Source: an uncultured Gammaproteobacteria bacterium (GTDB taxonomy: Bacteria > Patescibacteriota > Microgenomatia > Levybacterales > GWA1-39-11). Taken from it: a stretch of DNA of 64,000 nt. The stretch is taken from NCBI GenBank assembly GCA_964472415.1, contig CAYYLC010000001.1, positions 131,269 through 195,268 of the forward strand, read 5' to 3'. The position numbers were made by a program, and so were the translations under genes. Under the pieces are notes generated by a model that saw only the letters and a program-made list of their open reading frames with translations, ran no database searches and was not told where the DNA came from. Shown one piece after another: positions 1,444-13,836 of the stretch. Position 1 is the stretch's first letter. Each line of letters starts with the position of its first letter.

Positions 1444-1917
1444 ATGAAATATAATCTTTTTCGTTCTCCTTTTGGATCTGTTGTGATAAGTGCAGATGAA
1501 ACTGGTATTACCGGAGTGCATATGGAGAATGATCGATTTTTCTTAGAAATTCCAAAAGATTGGGTGCGAGATGAAAAGAGCTTATTGTTGAAGAAGGCGG
1601 AGGTTCAGCTTTTGGAGTATTTTCAGAAGAAAAGAAACAGTTTTAATCTCCCTCTTTCACAAAACGGAACAATATTCCAAAAGCGTGTATGGAGAGTAAT
1701 TTCAGAAATTCCATACGGAGAAACGATTTCATATAAGGAGATTGCAACTAAGATTGGCCATCCGCTTGCAGTCCGTGCAGTTGGAAGTGCAGTTGGAAAG
1801 AATCCAATTTGTATTATGGTCCCTTGTCATAGAGTTTTAAATACCGGTGGGAGAATTGGCGGTTATGTTGCAGGAGTAGGAGTAAAGAAAAGTTTGCTAG
1901 AGTTAGAGCAAGAATAA
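1444..1917 (+). CDS. ogt: Methylated-DNA-protein-cysteine methyltransferase (O6-alkylguanine DNA alkyltransferase)
   Basis: 157 aa with TIFQKRVWRVISEIPYGETISYKEIA and active-site PCHRV motif. Confidence 0.9.
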   Translation: MKYNLFRSPFGSVVISADETGITGVHMENDRFFLEIPKDWVRDEKSLLLKKAEVQLLEYFQKKRNSFNLPLSQNGTIFQKRVWRVISEIPYGETISYKEIATKIGHPLAVRAVGSAVGKNPICIMVPCHRVLNTGGRIGGYVAGVGVKKSLLELEQE

Positions 1918-1991
1918 ATTTACTATAGTAAGTTTGTCTTTAGAAATATTTCCAGGATCTGATAATTTGTAGTACGTGATATACTGAATCC

Positions 1992-2171
1992 ATGAAGAAG
2001 ATTGGGTATTCATTTTATTTTCCAGGACAAATTGCTTCTGCACTTGTTGCGTTCATCCTAAATGTTGGTATTCCATATATGACTGGAGATTCTATTAACT
2101 GGTTTACTACTATTTTAGTGACTGTTTCTGTTTTCTTTTCTGCGGGATTACGATATTTTCCTAAGAAATAA
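1992..2171 (+). CDS. Possible small two-TM membrane protein (59 aa), below the ORF-track length cutoff
   Basis: ATG 1992 to TAA 2169-2171: MKKIGYSFYFPGQIASALVAFILNVGIPYMTGDSINWFTTILVTVSVFFSAGLRYFPKK; sits in an otherwise empty 320-nt gap. Confidence 0.25.
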   Translation: MKKIGYSFYFPGQIASALVAFILNVGIPYMTGDSINWFTTILVTVSVFFSAGLRYFPKK

Positions 2172-2242
2172 GTGGCGTATTTTTCAGGATAATATTTATC
2201 GGAGCGATATAAATCAAGTTTTTTAATATTTTACTTTATCGA

Positions 2243-2506
2243 CTAGTTTTTATTTGTCACCTTATAAACTTTGCCGTTTGTATTATATGTAATCCATTCT
2301 CCAACTTGTTTCCCCATGTCAAAATATCCTGAGCGTTTTAAGGTGCCATTTTTGCGATACCATTCCCAGTAGCCATTGGTTTTTCCATCTACGATTTTCC
2401 CTTTTGACCACACAGTCTTTCCATTGGCATGATATTTAATAGTAAAACCGTCAACGATCTCTGATTTTTTGGGCTGGACCATTTTTTTATTGGAAGATTG
2501 CATATT
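2243..2506 (-). CDS. MORN-repeat protein (YwqK-like)
   Basis: Repeated GKxxGxWxxY(xx)NG units (GKTNGYWEWYRKNGTL, GKQVGEWITYNTNGKV); ORF opens at 2593 but the repeats follow Met at 2506. Confidence 0.6.
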   Translation of the reverse strand, partial: NMQSSNKKMVQPKKSEIVDGFTIKYHANGKTVWSKGKIVDGKTNGYWEWYRKNGTLKRSGYFDMGKQVGEWITYNTNGKVYKVTNKN

Positions 2507-2643
2507 TGCAGTATAGCAAAATTTTGAATATAGAATCTGTGCATAGCAGGCGCTGCTAGAGCTTATTTTCTCAATATAGAGTAACCATTTCATCCAGTGT
2601 TTCAGCCTGGTTACTGATGATTTCCATCATTTCAAGCTTAAAG

Positions 2644-3114
2644 TTATTTTGATTGTTTTAACGAATTTGAATCTTTCTTTACTAAAAATATTATGAGAAA
2701 GAAGATGCTACTTAGAAGATATAGGAGTGCCAGAATTGAGAAGTTGATTGGGATTCTAAAGAGAATTAAAGCAATTACAACTGAGGTAAATACTAGAGCC
2801 ATTGTGCTATTAACTTGTAGCTCAGAGCCTCTACCAGGAATTTTACTTACGCTTATTAACCTTATAACTCCATGGTTATAGACATAATCTAAAGGATGCA
2901 TAGGTAATTTTATTCCAAGAAGTGCTAATGTTGCCGCTGTAAGTAGTATATATGGATTCTTTAAGAATACGCCTAATAATACGATTGCTATGTATATTGG
3001 ATAACTAAAACGAATTCCATACTGAACACTTTTTTTGTCTGATATTAACTTGCAAGCAATCCATTGTGCCTCTAATCGGACATGTAGTTTTCTCCACAAG
3101 CCTTTTAACTTCAT
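2644..3114 (-). CDS. Hypothetical integral membrane protein
   Basis: 156 aa with four predicted hydrophobic helices; no motif recognised. Confidence 0.45.
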   Translation of the reverse strand: MKLKGLWRKLHVRLEAQWIACKLISDKKSVQYGIRFSYPIYIAIVLLGVFLKNPYILLTAATLALLGIKLPMHPLDYVYNHGVIRLISVSKIPGRGSELQVNSTMALVFTSVVIALILFRIPINFSILALLYLLSSIFFLIIFLVKKDSNSLKQSK

Positions 3115-3153
3115 AGTTTTAATTCGTTTACTTTGATTTTTTGTATTTCCATA

Positions 3154-6100
3154 TTAGTTAGCACCAGTCCAGTCTTTTGCCATAAGTTCTGCTTGTTCTA
3201 ATACAATTTTGGTTGCACCTTCCTGTTTGTCTGGTGGATATTTATATTTCACGAGTAATCTTTTAATGTAGATTCTCAGTTTTGCTTGAACGCTTTCTTT
3301 TATTGTCCAGTCAATTGATGTGTTCTTGCGAAGCATGTCAACCAGTTCTCGTGCCATTGCCTTGAGTGTTTCATCTCCAAGTTCACGCACTGCACTTTCA
3401 TTATTTGCCAGCGCATCATAGAAAGCGATTTCTTCAGGTGATAGCCCCATCTCATTGCCAATTTCTCTTTCATGCTGAATTTTCTTTGCCAGTTCCAGAA
3501 GTTCTGCTATAACTTGTGCTGCTTCGATTGTTCTGTTTTGGTATTTACGAATCGTTGCCTCTAGCATTTGTGCAAATGAACGAGATTTTACAAGATTTGT
3601 CTTTGTCATTGTTCTCAATTCATCATTTAATAGTTTTTTAAGAAGTTCTAATGCAACATTTTTATGCTGCATATTTTTTACTTCACTTAGAAATTCCTCT
3701 GAAAATATTGAGATGTCAGGAGACTTAATTCCAGCAGCTGAATATATGTCTATCACAGCATCTGAAGTGACAGCAGAGGAGACTATTTGTCTTATTGCCA
3801 CATCATAGTCATCATCTGTTGGCCCGCCATCTTGTGGTTCCATTTTCATTATTGCACCACGCACTATCTGATAAAATCCAACCTCATCTCGTATTTCCAT
3901 TGCCTTGTCATGAGGCACTGCAAGTGAAAATGCTTTTGATAATTCATTCACAGCTCTCAAATATCGTTTCTTACCATCCTCAAGTCCTAGTATAAAGTTT
4001 GTCGCAGCAGATATCGCTTGAGTCCTCTCAGAAGCTTTACCATTGAAGTATTTCTGATAGTCAAAGCCATGATACATTCCTCGTACAATCTCATACTTTT
4101 CAAGCATTAGTGTAACCGCTTCATCCTGAGGAATTGCGGTTTCTGATCTATCAGATTCGGAATAGTAGGAAAGTGCTTCTTTAAGCTCTGGTGCAATTCC
4201 AATGTAGTCAACAATAAGTCCACCTTGCTTGTCCTTATAAACACGATTAACACGAGCAATGGCTTGCATCAGTCCATGTCCTTGCATTGGTTTATCTATG
4301 TACATTGTATGAAGCGAAGGCACATCAAAGCCTGTCAGCCACATATCACGGACAATAACCAGATTCAATTCATCATCTGGATCTCTCATTCTTCTTGCCA
4401 TTGCGTCCAGCTCGTGTTTTGATCTGATATGAGGCTGAAAATTCAGCGGATCAGTTGCACTTCCGGTCATAACTACTTTCAGGAATCCTTTTGTTTCATC
4501 ATCACTATGCCATTGTGGACGAAGTTTTATGATCTCGTTGTAAAGCTCAACGGCAATACGTCTGCTCATTGCAACTATCATGCCTTTTCCATCCATGACT
4601 GAAAGTCTGTTTTCAAAATGATCCACCAGGTCCCGCGCAACCAGTGCTATTCTTTTTTCAGATCCTACCATTGCTTCAAGTCTGGCCCACCTACTCTTTA
4701 GTTTTTCTTTCTTTTCAATTTCTTCACCTTCTGTTAACTCTTCAAATTCTGGATCAATTTTTGGTTGCTCTTCTTTTTTAAGCTCAATTCTGGCAAGTCT
4801 CGCCTCGTAATAAATCGACACAGTTGCGTGATCCTCAACAGCGCGGGTTATATCGTAGATATCGACATACTCGCCAAATACTGCTCTTGTGTTCCTGTCC
4901 GACAGTTCAACAGGTGTGCCTGTAAAACCAATAAATGACGCGTTCGGAAGCGCATCTCTCATGTGTTTTGCAAATCCACTGATAAATTCATACTGACTTC
5001 GATGTGCCTCATCGGCAATGACAACAATATTTTTTCTGTCAGATAACATCGGATAGTCCTGCTCCCCATGAACAGGTAAGAATTTTTGTATGGTTGTGAA
5101 TATTACGCCACCTGAGGCAACTTTTAGAAGCTCTTGTAATTCATTTCTGTCATCTGCTTGTTTTGGTGTTTGTCGTAAGAGATCAGAGCTCTTTGAAAAT
5201 ATTCCAAACAATTGATTATCAAGATCATTTCTGTCAGTCAGTATGACAAGAGTAGGATTGTTAAGTTCTTGAATGATTTTTCCTGCAAAAAATGTCATAG
5301 TGAGACTTTTGCCAGAACCTTGAGTGTGCCAGACGACACCAGCACGTCTATCTCCTTCTTCTAGCGTGGCTTTTATAGTACTTTCTACCGCTTTGTTAGT
5401 GGCAAAGTATTGATGATAAGCAGCAGCTTTTTTAATTGTCTTTTCGCCATCAGTTTCAAACACGATGAAATTGGAAATAATGTCGAGTAATCGTGACTTA
5501 TCAAAGATTCCTTTTAACAGAACTTCAAGCTGAGGCAAAGCATTGGAAGCAATATCAATGCCATTGAGTGTTCGCCATCTCGTGAACCATTCAAGATTTG
5601 CAGACAAAGTACCAACTCGTGCTTCATTTCCATCACTAATGATTGAAAGTTCGTTATAGGCAAAAAGTGATGGAATATCTTGCTTGTACGTTTGGATTTG
5701 ATTAAATGCTCCTCTGACAGTTGCTTTTTCGTCTCCTGGATTTTTCAGTTCTATGACTATGACAGGTAATCCATTGACGAATACGACAACATCAGGACGT
5801 CTGTTATTGTTATTTTCAATGATGGTGTATTGGTTAACTGCCAGAAAGTCATTCTCGTCAATATTCACAAGGTCCACAAGCTTTACTTTGTCACCAGCGA
5901 CAGTTCCATCACTTCGCATATACTCTACATCCACGCCATCTCGCAGATATGAATGAAAGATTCTATTATTTAGGATTGCACTTGGAGTGATGAATGGAAC
6001 CTGCAGAACTTTCTTAAATGCTTCTTCTTTTGCGTCCATAGGAATATCAGAATTGAATTTCTCAATCGCATTCCAAAGTCTTTCCTCTAGTACTACATCA

Positions 6101-6234
6101 GCATAAGATTTTCGCTCAGGACTCACTCCGTCTGGTGGTGGTGCAATCTCAGGCCCACCAATAACAGAATAGCCTAATTCCTCAAGCCATTCTAAAGTCG
6201 CTAATTCTAAATCTGTTTCTGTGTATTTATTCAT
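3154..6234 (-). CDS. hsdR: Type I restriction enzyme R subunit (endonuclease/helicase)
   Basis: 1026 aa; Walker [13 protein letters not shown]; DEAH box [10 protein letters not shown]; typical HsdR N-terminus [22 protein letters not shown]. Confidence 0.95.
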
Positions 6235-7210
6235 GTTTATTTATCTGTGCTTTGATTAATTCAAAACAGTCATTGTTGTATAAAACAGGAATAGCGGAGC
6301 CTCCACGTTTTGTTCTTTTATATTCTCTTTCTTGTCTTTGACTTCTGAAATTGTATGCAGAATACTTCTCATCACCTTTTAGATTGTGTTTTTTGATAAT
6401 CTTGTTTAGATCATTTTGTTTGAATTTAGGAACCTCTTTTTTTAACTTGTCTCTAAGATCAGTCCATGTATATGGATATAAGTCTGTCACATTTTTACGT
6501 TCTATGATTGCAATAGCAGCATCTTTTGCTTCTTTATCCACTATTATTCTTGGAGCTTTTACTTCAGCGATTCGTTTTGCAGACACGATTTCGGCTTTGA
6601 TTTCGCACACTAGATAAAATCCTTCATTCTCTACTTGATTGTTCTTTTGCCTTTCAGAAATGTCTAGAATGATATTTTTAATCACACTAGGTTCATTGTC
6701 TATTGCAAGTGTCGTAAATGTCTTGAAGTTATAAGCAAAACCTAGTGGCAGAATGTTGAAGTTATAAGTTTTACTAAAATCTAAATTAAACCATTCTTTG
6801 ACTAATTTATTAAAATTTCTTAAAGATGCAGCACCAAGCGAATATACAAGATAAGACGTAGAGTCGTTATTATAAAAATGTATAGCAGTGTCTCTAATAT
6901 CAACCAACCTGTCTAGATTTTCTTCGAGAATATTATTTAGTTCGAGTTTCTTAAGTGCACCCATAATATCTACAGTATATGGAGTTTTCGCACGATTCTT
7001 TTTAATATATCTTCCTTCATATACATAAATTGCATTTGGATTTTTAGAATCCATTAGTATTTTTGCTTTTAATAATAGCTCCCATGCATTGATAAGTAAG
7101 ATTACAAATACTTCCTCTCTATACTTAAAATCTGGTTTATTGTAGATTTCAATCGAAGACAATGCTGCAGCGACTGACTTATCAAGTAAATTTTTGTATA
7201 TTGCTCTCAT
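6227..7210 (-). CDS. Hypothetical protein embedded between hsdS and hsdR; candidate HEPN-like nuclease (Rx4H motif); no P-loop
   Basis: 327 aa; overlaps hsdR start by 8 nt and ends 2 nt before the hsdS stop; motif IRDTAIH (R106..H111, nt 6878-6895); no Walker A; same position as PrrC in prr loci. Confidence 0.55.
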
Positions 7211-7211
7211 A

Positions 7212-8570
7212 TTAATTGACTCTTATCCTCCCACTCATAAGTCTTGGTAAAAGTGAATCTCTGATTTCGCTAAGCACATATACCTCTTTTTGGTTTGAAA
7301 TATACTTTTCCATTAAATTCACGATTAGTTTTTCAAAGCTTTTAAGGATATTATTTCCGGGTAGCAGAATCGAAACACTCTCTAAAATATCTGGACTAAT
7401 ATTTGGCTGAGCACTACCATATGCTTTTTCAACTATTGATTTTTGTATGTCACCGCTTCTTAGTAGGAAATATAAATACCAATGGTAATTTGAATTCTTT
7501 AGAAAATACTTTCCGACTCTTTGATTTAAAACTAACTCATAGTCACCTTTTACAAGGATGCCAATTTTTCCTGTTGTATTACCTGACATGGCAATCAAAA
7601 TATCTCCAGAATTCAAGATGAACTGTCTTGTCCTGTCTTTTACCTCCTCTTCAGAAACAAACTGAATATCCGTTACATCAACATCTGGATCAATAATATT
7701 TTTAATTTTGATTACGCCATATTTTCCAGAATCTTTAAAAGAAGAACCTTTAAAAGCAAATCCTGACTTTAGAGTTGCTATTTCTCTTACCCGTGAAGCT
7801 TCCCATCCTTTTGGAATCTCGCCTAATTCACTTTCCACCATCTCACCACCACTGGATTTGTACGGTTTGCCATTTTCGTTTGGAAATTCGAAATCCACAA
7901 ACCATCTTTTGAATAGTGTCTTGCCGATTTCCTCAAGCGTCTTATTCATCCTACGGTTTAATTCAATCTTGTCATCAAGCGAGGAGAGAATTGAGGCGAT
8001 TTGTTGTTGTTCACCAATTGGTGGATACTTGACCCAAGATTCCTTTATAGCCTCAGTTGTCAAATTCACTTGAACTCCACTTCGTGCTGTAGTTCTTAGC
8101 CTTTCGATATAACTTCTGGAATTCAGATAATAGTATAGATATGCACTGTCTACATTTGAGTTAGGACGAATTCTGCCGACGCGTTGGTTAACTAAAAATT
8201 TTTCATTATTAATTCTTGCAGAGTGACCTAACAAGTTCATGCTCGACTTCATGTCTGTCATACACATGAGGATATCATCCTTATCGGTTATGTAGCTTGC
8301 AAGCTTTCTAGCCAGGCTCTGATCCGCATAATCCTCTTTTCCTGTTATTTTAATTCCACCTCCTATATCAATGTTCCCCATCTTGAAGACTGGCACAGCA
8401 TTCTCAGATTTCTCAGTGTACGAACGACTACTAAACGCATATCCATTTGAAAAATCGGCTAACTCTTTTAGCTGCCTTAAATTCCAATCCTCTGGAATTT
8501 CACCAATTTCTGTTTGCCTGTCCGCCGTAGCTTTAGCGTTGGAGGGTTTGTATTGTGTATCGGATTTCAT
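7212..8570 (-). CDS. hsdS: Type I restriction-modification specificity subunit with two target-recognition domains
   Basis: 452 aa; central conserved coiled region PPIGEQQQIASILSSLDDKIELNRRMNKTLEEIGKTLFKRWFVDFEFP and C-terminal LLPRLMSGRIRV. Confidence 0.93.
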   Translation of the reverse strand: MKSDTQYKPSNAKATADRQTEIGEIPEDWNLRQLKELADFSNGYAFSSRSYTEKSENAVPVFKMGNIDIGGGIKITGKEDYADQSLARKLASYITDKDDILMCMTDMKSSMNLLGHSARINNEKFLVNQRVGRIRPNSNVDSAYLYYYLNSRSYIERLRTTARSGVQVNLTTEAIKESWVKYPPIGEQQQIASILSSLDDKIELNRRMNKTLEEIGKTLFKRWFVDFEFPNENGKPYKSSGGEMVESELGEIPKGWEASRVREIATLKSGFAFKGSSFKDSGKYGVIKIKNIIDPDVDVTDIQFVSEEEVKDRTRQFILNSGDILIAMSGNTTGKIGILVKGDYELVLNQRVGKYFLKNSNYHWYLYFLLRSGDIQKSIVEKAYGSAQPNISPDILESVSILLPGNNILKSFEKLIVNLMEKYISNQKEVYVLSEIRDSLLPRLMSGRIRVN

Positions 8571-8573
8571 AGC

Positions 8574-9410
8574 TTATGACTTAAGCTGTTTAACTTTATG
8601 GATTTGGCTCAAAGACTTCATTTGGGAGATGGCAACTTTGTTGAGCTGAAGTAGTCGCTCGCTTTGCTCCAGTCCCAGTTTAATAAGCTCTGCATTGAGT
8701 GACTCGAGATTGGTGAGACAAACTAGCTGGGCGGCGTTAGCGTAGTCTCGGACGTTACCTGGCTTTTTGGGGTTGGCGCTTCGCCACTCTTTGGCTGTCA
8801 TACCAAACAAGGCCTTATTGAGAACATCTGCTTCACTGGCATACAAGGCATTTGCTTGTGACTTAGATATTTTTGGAGGTATAAGAAATTCTTTGACAGC
8901 ATCGGTGTGAATACGATAGTTGATGGCCGCCAAATTGCGCTTCAGATCCCATCCTAGTTTTTCCCGCTCAATCTCTTCTTCTTTAAGCCGCTGAAATTCC
9001 TTGATCAAGAATAGTTTGAACTCTGCACTAATCCAGCTGGCAAATTCAAATGCGATGTCAGTGTGGGCAAAAACACCTCCACCATATCGACCAGGTTTCA
9101 TAATCAAACCAACAGCCTGAGTTGCTTCTATCCATCGTTTAGGAGTCAAAGAAAAGCTATTTGAACCCGCCTCGTTTTTAAAGGCGTCGAATTCGACGCC
9201 TTTAAACTCGGCGTTGTTAATACTCTCCCACAGTCCAAGAAATTCGATAGTGCTTCTATTTCTCAACCAATTTTGGATGATGTAATTCGTTCGCTCACTG
9301 TCTTTATACTTAGCAATATCTGTCAATGAAATAAAATCAGCATTTTCCAAAGTGCGAGTGGTAATTTCAATTCCCTTTACAATTATTTGCCTTGATTTTT
9401 GTTTCTTCAT
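8574..9410 (-). CDS. KilA-N (APSES-type) DNA-binding domain protein inserted between hsdM and hsdS
   Basis: 278 aa; ..[30 protein letters not shown].. resembles the KilA-N/ORF6N signature (GTWVHPDLA..FA.WLSP.F); C-terminal half is coiled-coil-like; start overlaps hsdM stop by 4 nt. Confidence 0.65.
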
Positions 9411-10945
9411 ACCTCAAATCCAACTTTTTTTAAATTCTCTTTAATTTTTTCTTCAAGCTCTTTTGACTCTATGAATTGTGCTGATAATTCGCTGGTCAGT
9501 CTTGCCATTTTCTCCTCAAATACTTCGTCATCTTCCATCTCAAAATCCGTGCCAACATATCTACCAGGAGTGAGGACATAGCTGTTCTTCTCTACTTCTT
9601 CAATACTTGCGGCTTTACAAAAGCCCTTCACATCTTCGTAATTCCCATCTTTGTTTCGCCAGTTGTGGTAAGTGTCTGAAATCCTTTGTAGTTCTTCATC
9701 AGTCAGTTCTCTGTGTCTTCTATCTATCATTGTTCCCATATTGCGAGCATCAATAAAAAGAATTTCGTTATGTCTGTCTCGGAATTTGTGATTATGTCTA
9801 TCTCGTGAGACAAACCATAGAGAGGCTGGAATACCAGTAGTGTAAAAGAGCTTATCTGGAAGTGCCACGATGCAATCCACAAGTCCTGCTTTTATGATTG
9901 CTTCTCTAATGATTCCCTCATTGGAAGTGTTAGAGGATAAAGCACCGTTTGCCATAACGAATCCTGCAATACCAGTAGGTGATAAATGATGGATGAAATG
10001 CTGAATCCAGGCATAGTTGGCATTGCCTGTTGGAGGCACACCATATTTCCAGCGGACATCATCGCGGAGTCTCTCACCGCCCCAGTCGCTCATATTAAAT
10101 GGAGGATTGGCGAGAATAAAATCTGCTTTTAAGTCTTTATGAAGATCATTATGAAAACTGTCTCCTTCAGATTCGCCTAAATTTCCTTCAATTCCACGAA
10201 TTGCCAGATTCATTTTGGCAAGTCTCCAAGTAGTGGCATTGCTTTCCTGTCCATATACTGCAATGTCACTAACTTTTCCGCCATGTTCTTCCACAAACTT
10301 TTCACTTTGGACAAACATCCCACCACTTCCGCAACAAGGATCGTAAACTCTTCCTTGAAATGGCTCTATCATAGTAACAAGGAGTTTTACTACTGAAGCT
10401 GGTGTATAGAATTCACCGCCGCCTTTTCCTTCTGCACTAGCAAATCTTCCAATGAAGTATTCATAGACACGTCCAAGAATATCTTTTGACTTTGAGGCTT
10501 TGTCTCCAAGTCCAAGTGAGCTGAAAATATCAACTATTTCACCGAGTCTTTGTTTATTAAGATCTGGCCGTGCATAACGTTTAGGAAGAACACCTTTTAG
10601 AGTAGGATTCTCTTTTTCAATTGCTATCATTGCGTCATCAATGATTTTGCCTATTTCAGGCTTCTTGGCATTTTCTTTGAGATAATCCCATCTCGCATTC
10701 TCCGGTACCCAAAATATATTTCTTGCTTTGTATGCGTCCTTATCCTCCCATTCACCATTAAATGCTTCTGGATCATTTTTGATTGACTGGTACGTTTCTT
10801 CAAAAGAGTCGGAGATATATTTGAGGAAAATAAGTCCTAGTACAACATGTTTATATTCAGCAGAATCCATGTGTCCACGAAGTTTGTCCGCAGCAGCCCA
10901 TAATTTCGCTTCAAAACCTATATTTGCAGAACTGTTTTTTGCCAT
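9407..10945 (-). CDS. hsdM: Type I restriction-modification N6-adenine DNA methyltransferase subunit
   Basis: 512 aa; HsdM_N-like N-terminus ([35 protein letters not shown]); catalytic ILANPPFN motif. Confidence 0.95.
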
Positions 10946-10969
10946 AATGTTTTTAATTCTCTTTGGTGC

Positions 10970-11164
10970 TTATTTTTTGTTTCGTGACAAATAAGCTTCA
11001 ATATCACTCTTGCGGTATCGTCTGTCACCAACACCTTTTCGAGTGCCAACACGAACGGCTTTCAGAATTTCGTTCTTATCCCAGCGCCATAAAGTTTGAA
11101 CATTTACATTCAAGATCCGTGCTGCCTCTTGGATAGATATCAGCTCTTCAAGCGCTGAATTCAT
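10970..11164 (-). CDS. Small helix-turn-helix DNA-binding protein (excisionase/MerR-like HTH_17 family), first gene upstream of hsdM
   Basis: MNSALEELISIQEAARILNVNVQTLWRWDKNEILKAVRVG..: classic excisionase-family HTH; ORF opens at 11200 but Met at 11164 fits. Confidence 0.65.
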   Translation of the reverse strand: MNSALEELISIQEAARILNVNVQTLWRWDKNEILKAVRVGTRKGVGDRRYRKSDIEAYLSRNKK

Positions 11165-11432
11165 ATTAGTTGAGCTTAATTTTACTAAATTGAGGATCAA
11201 AACACCAGATAAGATGAGTTTTCATCATTCATGATAAGTTAGGCTATTATTCTTTCCAAAATAAAGATTTTTTAATAACAAAAGACTCAAGTAATACTTA
11301 TTAGGTACAAATCAAAAAAGACAAGAGAAAGCAAAGAAGGAGATCGAGGACATTGTATTTGCGTTAGAACCGAAAGAATTGGCTGTTATATCAAGCAATT
11401 TAGTGTCTTACGAGCCTATCAGTTCTGCTTTG

Positions 11433-11503
11433 CTGCCGAGCAGGGATTCGAACCCCAATAAACGGATCCAGAATCCGTTGTCCTACCATTAGACGACTCG
11501 GCA
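11433..11503 (-). tRNA. tRNA-Gln (anticodon CUG)
   Basis: Reverse complement folds as a cloverleaf: acceptor UGCCGAG/CUCGGCA (U1-A72, discriminator G73, as in bacterial tRNA-Gln); D-arm GUCU..GGAC; anticodon stem ACGGA/UCCGU with loop UUCUGGA; T-loop UUCGAAU; CCA not encoded. Confidence 0.85.
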
Positions 11504-11624
11504 TCGATAGGGTGTAGTAAAGTGTATTTTACAAAATTAGCTTATACAATGCTACTTTGCTCTGAAATACAGTGGAGGATTTTCTGTATGTTCTCAATAA
11601 TCATTCGAGGGCATATAAAGAAAT

Positions 11625-13836
<2,212 letters not shown>

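Follow-up and report, generated by a model that had tools for sequence, protein, structure and literature searches.

We analyzed a 64,000-nucleotide stretch of contig CAYYLC010000001.1 (positions 131,269 to 195,268, assembly GCA_964472415.1), called the window in the following, from an uncultured bacterium that is deposited as a gammaproteobacterium and placed by GTDB in the Patescibacteriota. The subject is an open reading frame (ORF) on the minus strand of this window, at 6227-7210, which begins with ATG and encodes a protein of 327 amino acids (aa). An initial annotation of the window, made from its letters and a list of ORFs, had described the product as a HEPN-like protein encoded between the hsdS and hsdR genes of a type I restriction-modification (R-M) system. 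According to our analysis, the ORF, referred to below as the target ORF, encodes a HEPN protein of the DUF3644/EC042_2821 family that corresponds to the PADLOC candidate PDC-S19, and it probably acts in defense on its own, with the R-M operon as its carrier.

The target ORF is the fourth of five genes on the minus strand, which read, from head to tail, hsdM, a KilA-N gene, hsdS, the target ORF and hsdR. The operon is headed by hsdM (9407-10945, 512 aa; Pfam HsdM_N and N6_Mtase, E = 5.9e-110). Between hsdM and hsdS lies the gene for a KilA-N domain protein of 278 aa (8574-9410; Pfam KilA-N, E = 2.1e-17; PADLOC PDC-S22, E = 3.6e-128). Directly upstream of the target ORF, hsdS (7212-8570, 452 aa) encodes two target-recognition domains, seen as two Pfam Methylase_S stretches (E = 2.4e-39). 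Directly downstream, hsdR (3154-6234, 1026 aa) contains Pfam HSDR_N, SWI2_SNF2, ResIII, T1R_D3-like and T1RH-like_C domains. The type I R-M operon around the target ORF is apparently intact.

Along the operon, hsdM and the KilA-N gene overlap by 4 nucleotides (nt), 3 nt separate the latter from hsdS, 1 nt lies between hsdS and the target ORF, and the target ORF overlaps hsdR by 8 nt. The position and length given for the ORF in the initial annotation agree with the ORF list and the translation, while its strand had not been mentioned there. The 8-nt overlap with the hsdR start that had been described is exact, the target stop being located inside the hsdR start with nt 6227-6234 shared. The ORF had further been said to follow hsdS without a gap. 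The two genes are indeed adjacent, but not without a gap, as a single spacer base (7211) separates the hsdS stop (7212-7214) from the target ATG (7210-7208). In a scan of the operon, promoter-like and terminator-like sites were not in excess over shuffled sequence. This, together with the tight packing of the genes, fits a single transcript.

Protein family, motif and predicted fold

The relationship of the protein N-terminus to DUF3644, proposed in the initial annotation, was confirmed by Pfam. The DUF3644 profile (PF12358) matches residues 7-186 with E = 1.3e-44 and 152.4 bits (gathering cut-off 27.6 bits), and the match extends over profile positions 1-178 of 183. All 54 homologs in the alignment that was used to judge conservation (40-81% identity to the target) also match DUF3644. 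Among the PADLOC models, the best is PDC-S19 (PDLC04954; E = 3.6e-63, residues 2-287 on profile positions 2-298 of 330), and eight more PDC-S19 models match the target. At an E-value threshold of 1e-5, the target has 2077 homologs, nearly all of full length (about 320-340 aa), so the ORF is a real gene and not a chance ORF. The closest genome match is a metagenome-assembled genome (MAG) of the Patescibacteria, and two further relatives come from Wolfebacteria and Parcubacteria MAGs, which are also of the Patescibacteria group. A search with the target against the sequences of PDB chains returned nothing (best E = 0.19, a kinesin), and there was no meaningful match in NCBIfam.

The predicted catalytic residues reside in the motif RDTAIH (R106 to H111; 6878-6895, minus strand), which a regular-expression search identified as the sole Rx4-6H motif of the protein, at the position reported initially. 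R106, D107 and H111 are invariant in the 54 homologs. The same is true of E21, Y23, K25, P26, R31, N41, W43, E44, K48, R73, N98, N132 and W140 in the N-terminal half, and of D243 in the C-terminal half. R106 and H111 are also kept in homologs from contexts free of R-M genes. Neither a Walker A motif ([AG]x4GK[ST], by regular expression) nor an ATPase family (Pfam, E ≤ 0.1) was found in the target protein, in line with the earlier remark that it has no P-loop. Gene order and Pfam matches therefore uphold the description of a HEPN protein without ATPase in the hsdS-hsdR slot, the slot of prrC.

An AlphaFold2 model built on the alignment of the 54 homologs has a mean predicted local distance difference test score (pLDDT) of 81.5. 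In blocks of 10 residues, the mean is 86-98 as far as aa 110 and then 75-95 as far as aa 150; no confident structure is predicted for residues 206-238, and the last 85 residues or so are confident. The N-terminal HEPN domain (aa 1-186; 6653-7210, minus strand) is modeled as a bundle of helices into which a beta-hairpin is inserted at about aa 60-80, and it shows the four-helix up-down arrangement of HEPN type that the initial annotation had anticipated. The model places R106 where helix 93-109 ends, and H111 in the turn preceding helix 116-141. This location of Rx4H, at the junction of helix 3 and helix 4, fits the HEPN superfamily. The linker or middle region (aa 187-240; 6491-6652, minus strand) contains a conserved CE (202-203) and SAKK (210-213), with a pLDDT of 33-52 in the full model and of 52-61 when modeled as a fragment. 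The C-terminal module (aa 241-327; 6230-6490, minus strand) is predicted to have the order helix-helix-strand-helix-strand-helix, weakly reminiscent of a MerR-like winged helix. Together, the profile matches, the conserved residues and the model support a HEPN-fold protein of the DUF3644/EC042_2821 branch, with a conserved Rx4H that is predicted to be catalytic.

The family has been known for some time. Anantharaman et al. (2013; PMC3710099) equated DUF3644 with the EC042_2821 family of the HEPN superfamily, noted the conserved Rx4-6H, listed fusions to winged helix-turn-helix (wHTH), restriction endonuclease (REase) and zinc-ribbon domains, and stated that the family "occurs in R-M system operons". 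The target matches this family in DUF3644, HEPN fold, Rx4H and location in an R-M operon. It differs from the EC042_2821 prototype at the C-terminal end, where about 180 aa of the prototype form a domain of REase fold (EC042_2821_CTD) and the target has, according to the model, a small helix-rich module. The REase-like domain itself (PF18740) was considered for the target and rejected, because the Pfam match was below threshold and present in 2 of the 54 homologs, with E around 0.01.

Payne et al. (2024; bioRxiv 10.1101/2024.01.29.577857) collected genes that lie inside BREX, DISARM and type I R-M systems as PDC candidates, which were added to PADLOC. PDC-S19 is thus a candidate class defined by the very situation in which the target is found, and PADLOC classes it as a single-gene candidate ("S"); the strings "PDC-S19" and PF12358 do not occur in the supplements of Payne et al. 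HEPN proteins of the DUF3644 family in R-M operons were therefore already described in 2013 and catalogued as PDC-S19 in 2024, and the target represents one more case of a catalogued defense-candidate family, not a new kind of system. It adds a member from an uncultivated lineage of the Patescibacteria group to a family already flagged for defense, and mainly confirms that "guilt by embedding" also holds in bacteria with small genomes.

Genomic context and C-terminal module of the relatives

The hsdS-hsdR slot holds a DUF3644 gene in several relatives of the operon (L084, L089, L021 and L057). In the relative with 81% identity (P0002, five contigs; L084), the order is hsdM, a DUF4145 gene, hsdS, the DUF3644 gene and hsdR. 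The DUF4145 gene (L084 1844-2479) encodes another HEPN protein, which matches PADLOC PD-T7-4 with E = 4.3e-87. In the 53% relative (P0007; L089), hsdM and hsdS are separated by four small uncharacterized ORFs (3484-5679), and hsdS is again followed by DUF3644 and hsdR. The series hsdS, DUF3644, hsdR is also seen in the relative from the Wolfebacteria MAG (L021, 41% identity). For these three relatives, identities of the HEPN protein are 81%, 53% and 41%, compared to 85/85%, 78/64% and 53/44% for HsdM/HsdR, and only about 31-34% for HsdS. Divergence of the HEPN protein has thus kept approximate pace with that of HsdM and HsdR, so the hsdS-hsdR slot has long been occupied in this operon lineage.

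The two slots of the operon behave differently: the hsdM-hsdS slot swaps its cargo (KilA-N/PDC-S22, PD-T7-4 or the four small ORFs), and the hsdS-hsdR slot retains the HEPN gene. PD-T7-4 is a validated defense gene. The two-slot operon is a convenient natural system in which to ask whether embedded genes depend on the R-M complex. In the 81% relative, hsdR is followed by CpXC, GmrSD_N (type IV restriction-like), PDDEXK_1 and trypsin-like protease genes (L084 7796-12679), a defense island larger than that of the window.

Other relatives are found outside type I operons. A 67% relative (P0006) is a solo gene beside a LexA-like repressor and a Vsr/Dcm pair, in a type IV secretion (conjugative) region, and the gene of a 47% relative (P0019, 24 contigs) is placed directly behind brxL in a BREX system. 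Further relatives adjoin Eco57I-type or ResIII-type genes, or are located on plasmids, prophages and phage satellites. A tblastn search detected DUF3644 homologs on five plasmids as well as in 40 phage records, the latter all from Firmicutes, with temperate phages of Staphylococcus, Streptococcus and Listeria and Streptococcus satellites. Examples are a Staphylococcus phage StB20-like gene (L094, NC_028821.1 39023-40006) and the Streptococcus satellite phages Javan495, Javan737 and Javan756. Carriage by phages and plasmids fits a mobile defense or exclusion gene that is independent of R-M.

In order to quantify the association, we took a census of 80 loci from species-representative genomes, with Pfam annotation of 73 upstream and 68 downstream neighbors. 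Upstream neighbors included Methylase_S (8), Eco57I (8), ResIII (7) and N6_Mtase (5), as well as HNH, TIR and BrxL; downstream neighbors included ResIII (5), N6_Mtase (3) and HSDR_N (3). Type I neighbors were then detected with local iterative hidden Markov models seeded with HsdM, HsdS and HsdR of the window. Genes of this kind were present within three genes of the homolog at 28 of 75 loci, adjacent to it at 23 and on both sides at 10. Among the 40 loci with at least 3 kb of sequence on each flank, type I genes were within three genes in 16 cases (about 40%), and the homolog was embedded in 8. The association with R-M genes, which the reading in the initial annotation required, is far above the level for random genes, yet well short of obligate, and hence facultative. 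No conserved small partner or antitoxin ORF was common beside the homologs, except for one 110-aa ORF in two loci with BREX context.

The C-terminal module is not restricted to DUF3644 proteins. A profile of the C-terminal 141 residues of the target, compared to 1.84 billion cluster representatives, retrieved just 178 proteins at E ≤ 1e-3. Among the best 150 of these, 44 have a DUF3644 N-terminus, 41 have a Schlafen/AlbA_2 (PF04326) N-terminus, 59 are short fragments and 6 were left unclassified. The common part corresponds to residues 241-327 or so of the target and aligns between the HEPN and Schlafen types without gaps, with YP, K, S-x-Y-x-F, G and YN-x2-A as conserved positions. Identity between the types is 33-37% over the module by tblastn, with E-values down to 1e-14.

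Proteins of the Schlafen type turn up in the same slot (loci L095, L097, L098, L100 and L101-L180). In one case (P0177), the order is hsdM, hsdS, the gene for Schlafen domain and module, a Bro-N gene (PDC-S13) and hsdR; in a second (P0201), the Schlafen-type gene directly follows hsdS, with hsdR downstream; in a third (P0159), it directly follows a partial hsdS. An alignment of six sequences was used to find metagenome loci of this type. Type I genes were within three genes at 34 of the 79 metagenome loci and flanked the Schlafen-type gene on both sides at 24. For loci with at least 3 kb on the flanks, the corresponding figures are 19 of 28 and, for embedded genes, 16 of 28. PADLOC v2 is without a full-length model for the Schlafen-type family. 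When four members were scanned, one had no match, two matched PDC-S19 via the common C-terminal module only, and one matched PDC-S50 weakly, in its N-terminal half. At L095, a Bro-N protein (8089-8931; PDC-S13, E = 6.8e-114) is encoded between the Schlafen-type gene and hsdR, and is a candidate DNA-binding-domain protein embedded in the manner of KilA-N.

That HEPN and Schlafen effectors alternate on one and the same module suggests that sensing or partner binding is the task of the module in these proteins. Since two unrelated predicted RNase domains carry it in the same slot, it points to a candidate element for trigger sensing or binding of a partner. In particular, it might act as a portable adaptor or sensor through which RNase-type effectors that can replace each other (HEPN or Schlafen/AlbA_2) are coupled to type I R-M. 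If the module docked on the R-M complex, or read its DNA-bound or translocating state, such proteins would be modular "R-M guards", and the logic of PrrC would be generalized without an ATPase. We hold this to be quite improbable because of an adjacency control. The module is present at 38 of 75 DUF3644 genome loci, and R-M genes are adjacent at 12 of these 38 and at 16 of the 37 loci without it. Proteins lacking the module are R-M-adjacent as often as those with it. The presence of R-M is thus not correlated with any part of the protein, and the idea that the module ties the protein to R-M was largely rejected.

Candidate functions of the embedded HEPN protein

We consider it probable that the target is an autonomous single-polypeptide HEPN defense effector, present as a cargo cassette that is co-transcribed within the type I R-M operon. 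Autonomy is suggested by motif-intact homologs that are solo on the conjugative element, placed after brxL, or carried by plasmids, phages and satellites. The lack of a conserved small partner ORF at the loci surveyed and the single-gene class in PADLOC point in the same direction. A role in defense is indicated by neighbors enriched for R-M and other defense families, and by the 81% relative, with PD-T7-4 in its other slot and GmrSD after hsdR.

By analogy with HEPN biology (Anantharaman et al., 2013) and with the structures of HepT and HepS, the protein would form dimers or higher oligomers, in which paired Rx4H motifs make up a metal-independent RNase site. It may be held inactive by its own conformation or by the C-terminal part, that is, the linker and the small winged-helix-like module. 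A cue arising during phage or plasmid invasion would turn the effector on. The active form would then cut host or invader RNA (tRNA, rRNA or mRNA) and halt translation and growth or replication, which would provide a second line of defense once restriction fails. In this scheme, the R-M operon would supply co-expression and co-mobility rather than an obligatory protein-protein license.

Two characterized proteins can serve as models for such an effector. HEC-08, a DUF3644 protein, loses phage defense when its motif histidine, H128, is mutated (bioRxiv 10.1101/2024.01.29.577857). Like the target, it is a single-gene HEPN protein of DUF3644 type, and the two have KPxF, ExLLK and R[DN]xxxHFY in common, as judged by eye. 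They differ in that the PADLOC HEC-08 and DUF3644 models match the HEC-08 N-terminus (E = 6.8e-71 and 2.7e-57) and are absent from the target hits at E ≤ 0.1. The target also has just two cysteines, with neither CxxC pairs nor zinc-ribbon motifs, and HEC-08 is found embedded in Hma systems, not in type I R-M. Comparison to the N-terminal fragment of HEC-08 by hhalign gave a probability of 1.8% and was uninformative.

The second model is HepS from the Gifsy-1 prophage, a solo HEPN anticodon nuclease that forms a self-inhibited tetramer, is opened by a phage tail-tip protein and then cuts specific tRNA anticodon loops (PMC13043305). It resembles the target as a single HEPN protein with Rx4H and no partner gene. 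HepS is also among the top Foldseek matches of the target, although these are not significant (E around 0.3). In contrast to the target, its chains have about 190-220 residues and are without the C-terminal module, and there is no detectable sequence kinship.

Several points weigh against an autonomous effector. A full-text literature search for "PDC-S19" returned no paper, and no report of RNase activity, toxicity or defense was found for any member. As the target falls outside the HEC-08 model family, the experiments that lend support were made on a distant relative. The oligomeric state and the auto-inhibition are proposed by analogy only. Finally, the gene is kept in the hsdS-hsdR slot and diverges at a pace similar to HsdM and HsdR, which would also fit a functional tie to R-M.

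Such a tie is at the heart of the most serious alternative, which the initial annotation had put forward in the form of a minimal PrrC variant. The type I complex would bind the HEPN protein and hold it latent, and a phage anti-restriction factor would free the RNase, with abortive infection as the outcome. PrrC is kept latent through binding to EcoprrI and is activated by the T4 Stp peptide. PrrC and RloC resemble the target in that a HEPN-superfamily nuclease gene (a predicted one in our case) lies between hsdS and hsdR of a type I operon, and it is plausible that the target backs up restriction as PrrC does. The junctions in the style of translational coupling, the conservation of the slot in the 81%, 53% and 41% relatives, and the window, which contains no antitoxin-like neighbor, are all compatible with licensing by the complex. 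So is the occupation of the same slot by Schlafen/AlbA_2 proteins with the same module, embedded in type I operons at more than half of the well-flanked loci.

Nevertheless, we regard this alternative as unlikely. PrrC is cited by Payne et al. (bioRxiv 10.1101/2024.01.29.577857) as an example of a system embedded almost exclusively in type I R-M. The association is facultative for the target family, with type I genes near only 16 of the 40 well-flanked loci, and solo, BREX, plasmid and phage contexts in addition. Family members in these settings keep R106 and H111 without any type I genes nearby, and R-M adjacency is similar with and without the module. The target moreover belongs to another HEPN family than PrrC and RloC and is without their N-terminal ABC-ATPase/P-loop domain, which in PrrC is regulatory. 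Intact catalytic residues in R-M-free contexts and the missing PrrC-type ATPase are the reasons why licensing by the type I complex is not favored, and this part of the initial annotation did not find support.

Another alternative is a role mainly against plasmids, although sequence alone does not reveal whether phages or plasmids are the target class. Ishtar proteins (bioRxiv 10.64898/2026.07.06.735840) are monogenic, often encoded near defense genes, and combine HEPN at the N-terminus (DUF3644 or DUF4145) with an uncharacterized C-terminal domain; they clear the plasmid RP4. Accordingly, the target might mainly remove conjugative plasmids, for instance through degradation of the RNA that primes replication, with survival of the cell, and the relative on the conjugative element (P0006) would be in keeping with this. 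A specifically Ishtar-like role nevertheless seems rather remote. In the portion of Table S3 consulted, three homologs have 202-252 aa, compared to 327 aa for the target, and none of the sequences in that portion contains YNKP or WELLLK, strings that are invariant in the target family. The Ishtar C-terminal domain, described as 5-7 strands and 3 helices, also differs from the model of the target C-terminus.

A regulatory and non-catalytic role, in which the winged-helix-like module would bind DNA to control the R-M operon and the HEPN domain would serve ligand binding or dimerization, can draw on the wHTH fusions listed for the family (PMC3710099) and on the existence of non-catalytic HEPN domains, but is very improbable in view of the Rx4H that is invariant across 40-81% identity, the position of the gene in the middle and not upstream of the operon, and the many family contexts with no R-M system to control.

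Flanks of the operon

Upstream of hsdM, a tRNA-Gln(CTG) gene (11432-11503, minus strand) is located between the ATP synthase epsilon gene and the operon, so that the R-M island begins right after a tRNA gene. A search for an integration scar in 1900-11600 identified no att-like direct repeat of the tRNA-Gln end, and no integrase was seen from tRNA-Gln to hsdR. Directly downstream of hsdR there are two small genes on the same strand (2243-2593 and 2644-3114, both minus). One encodes a protein of 116 aa, in which MORN-variant repeats score below the Pfam threshold, and the other a predicted membrane protein of 156 aa with a weak DUF4395 match. On the other side of the tRNA gene, a subunit of the ATP synthase alpha/beta family (12040-13830, minus strand, 596 aa) has Pfam domains that stop near residue 432; the roughly 150 residues beyond them form a C-terminal tail of low complexity with a high content of E, K and D.

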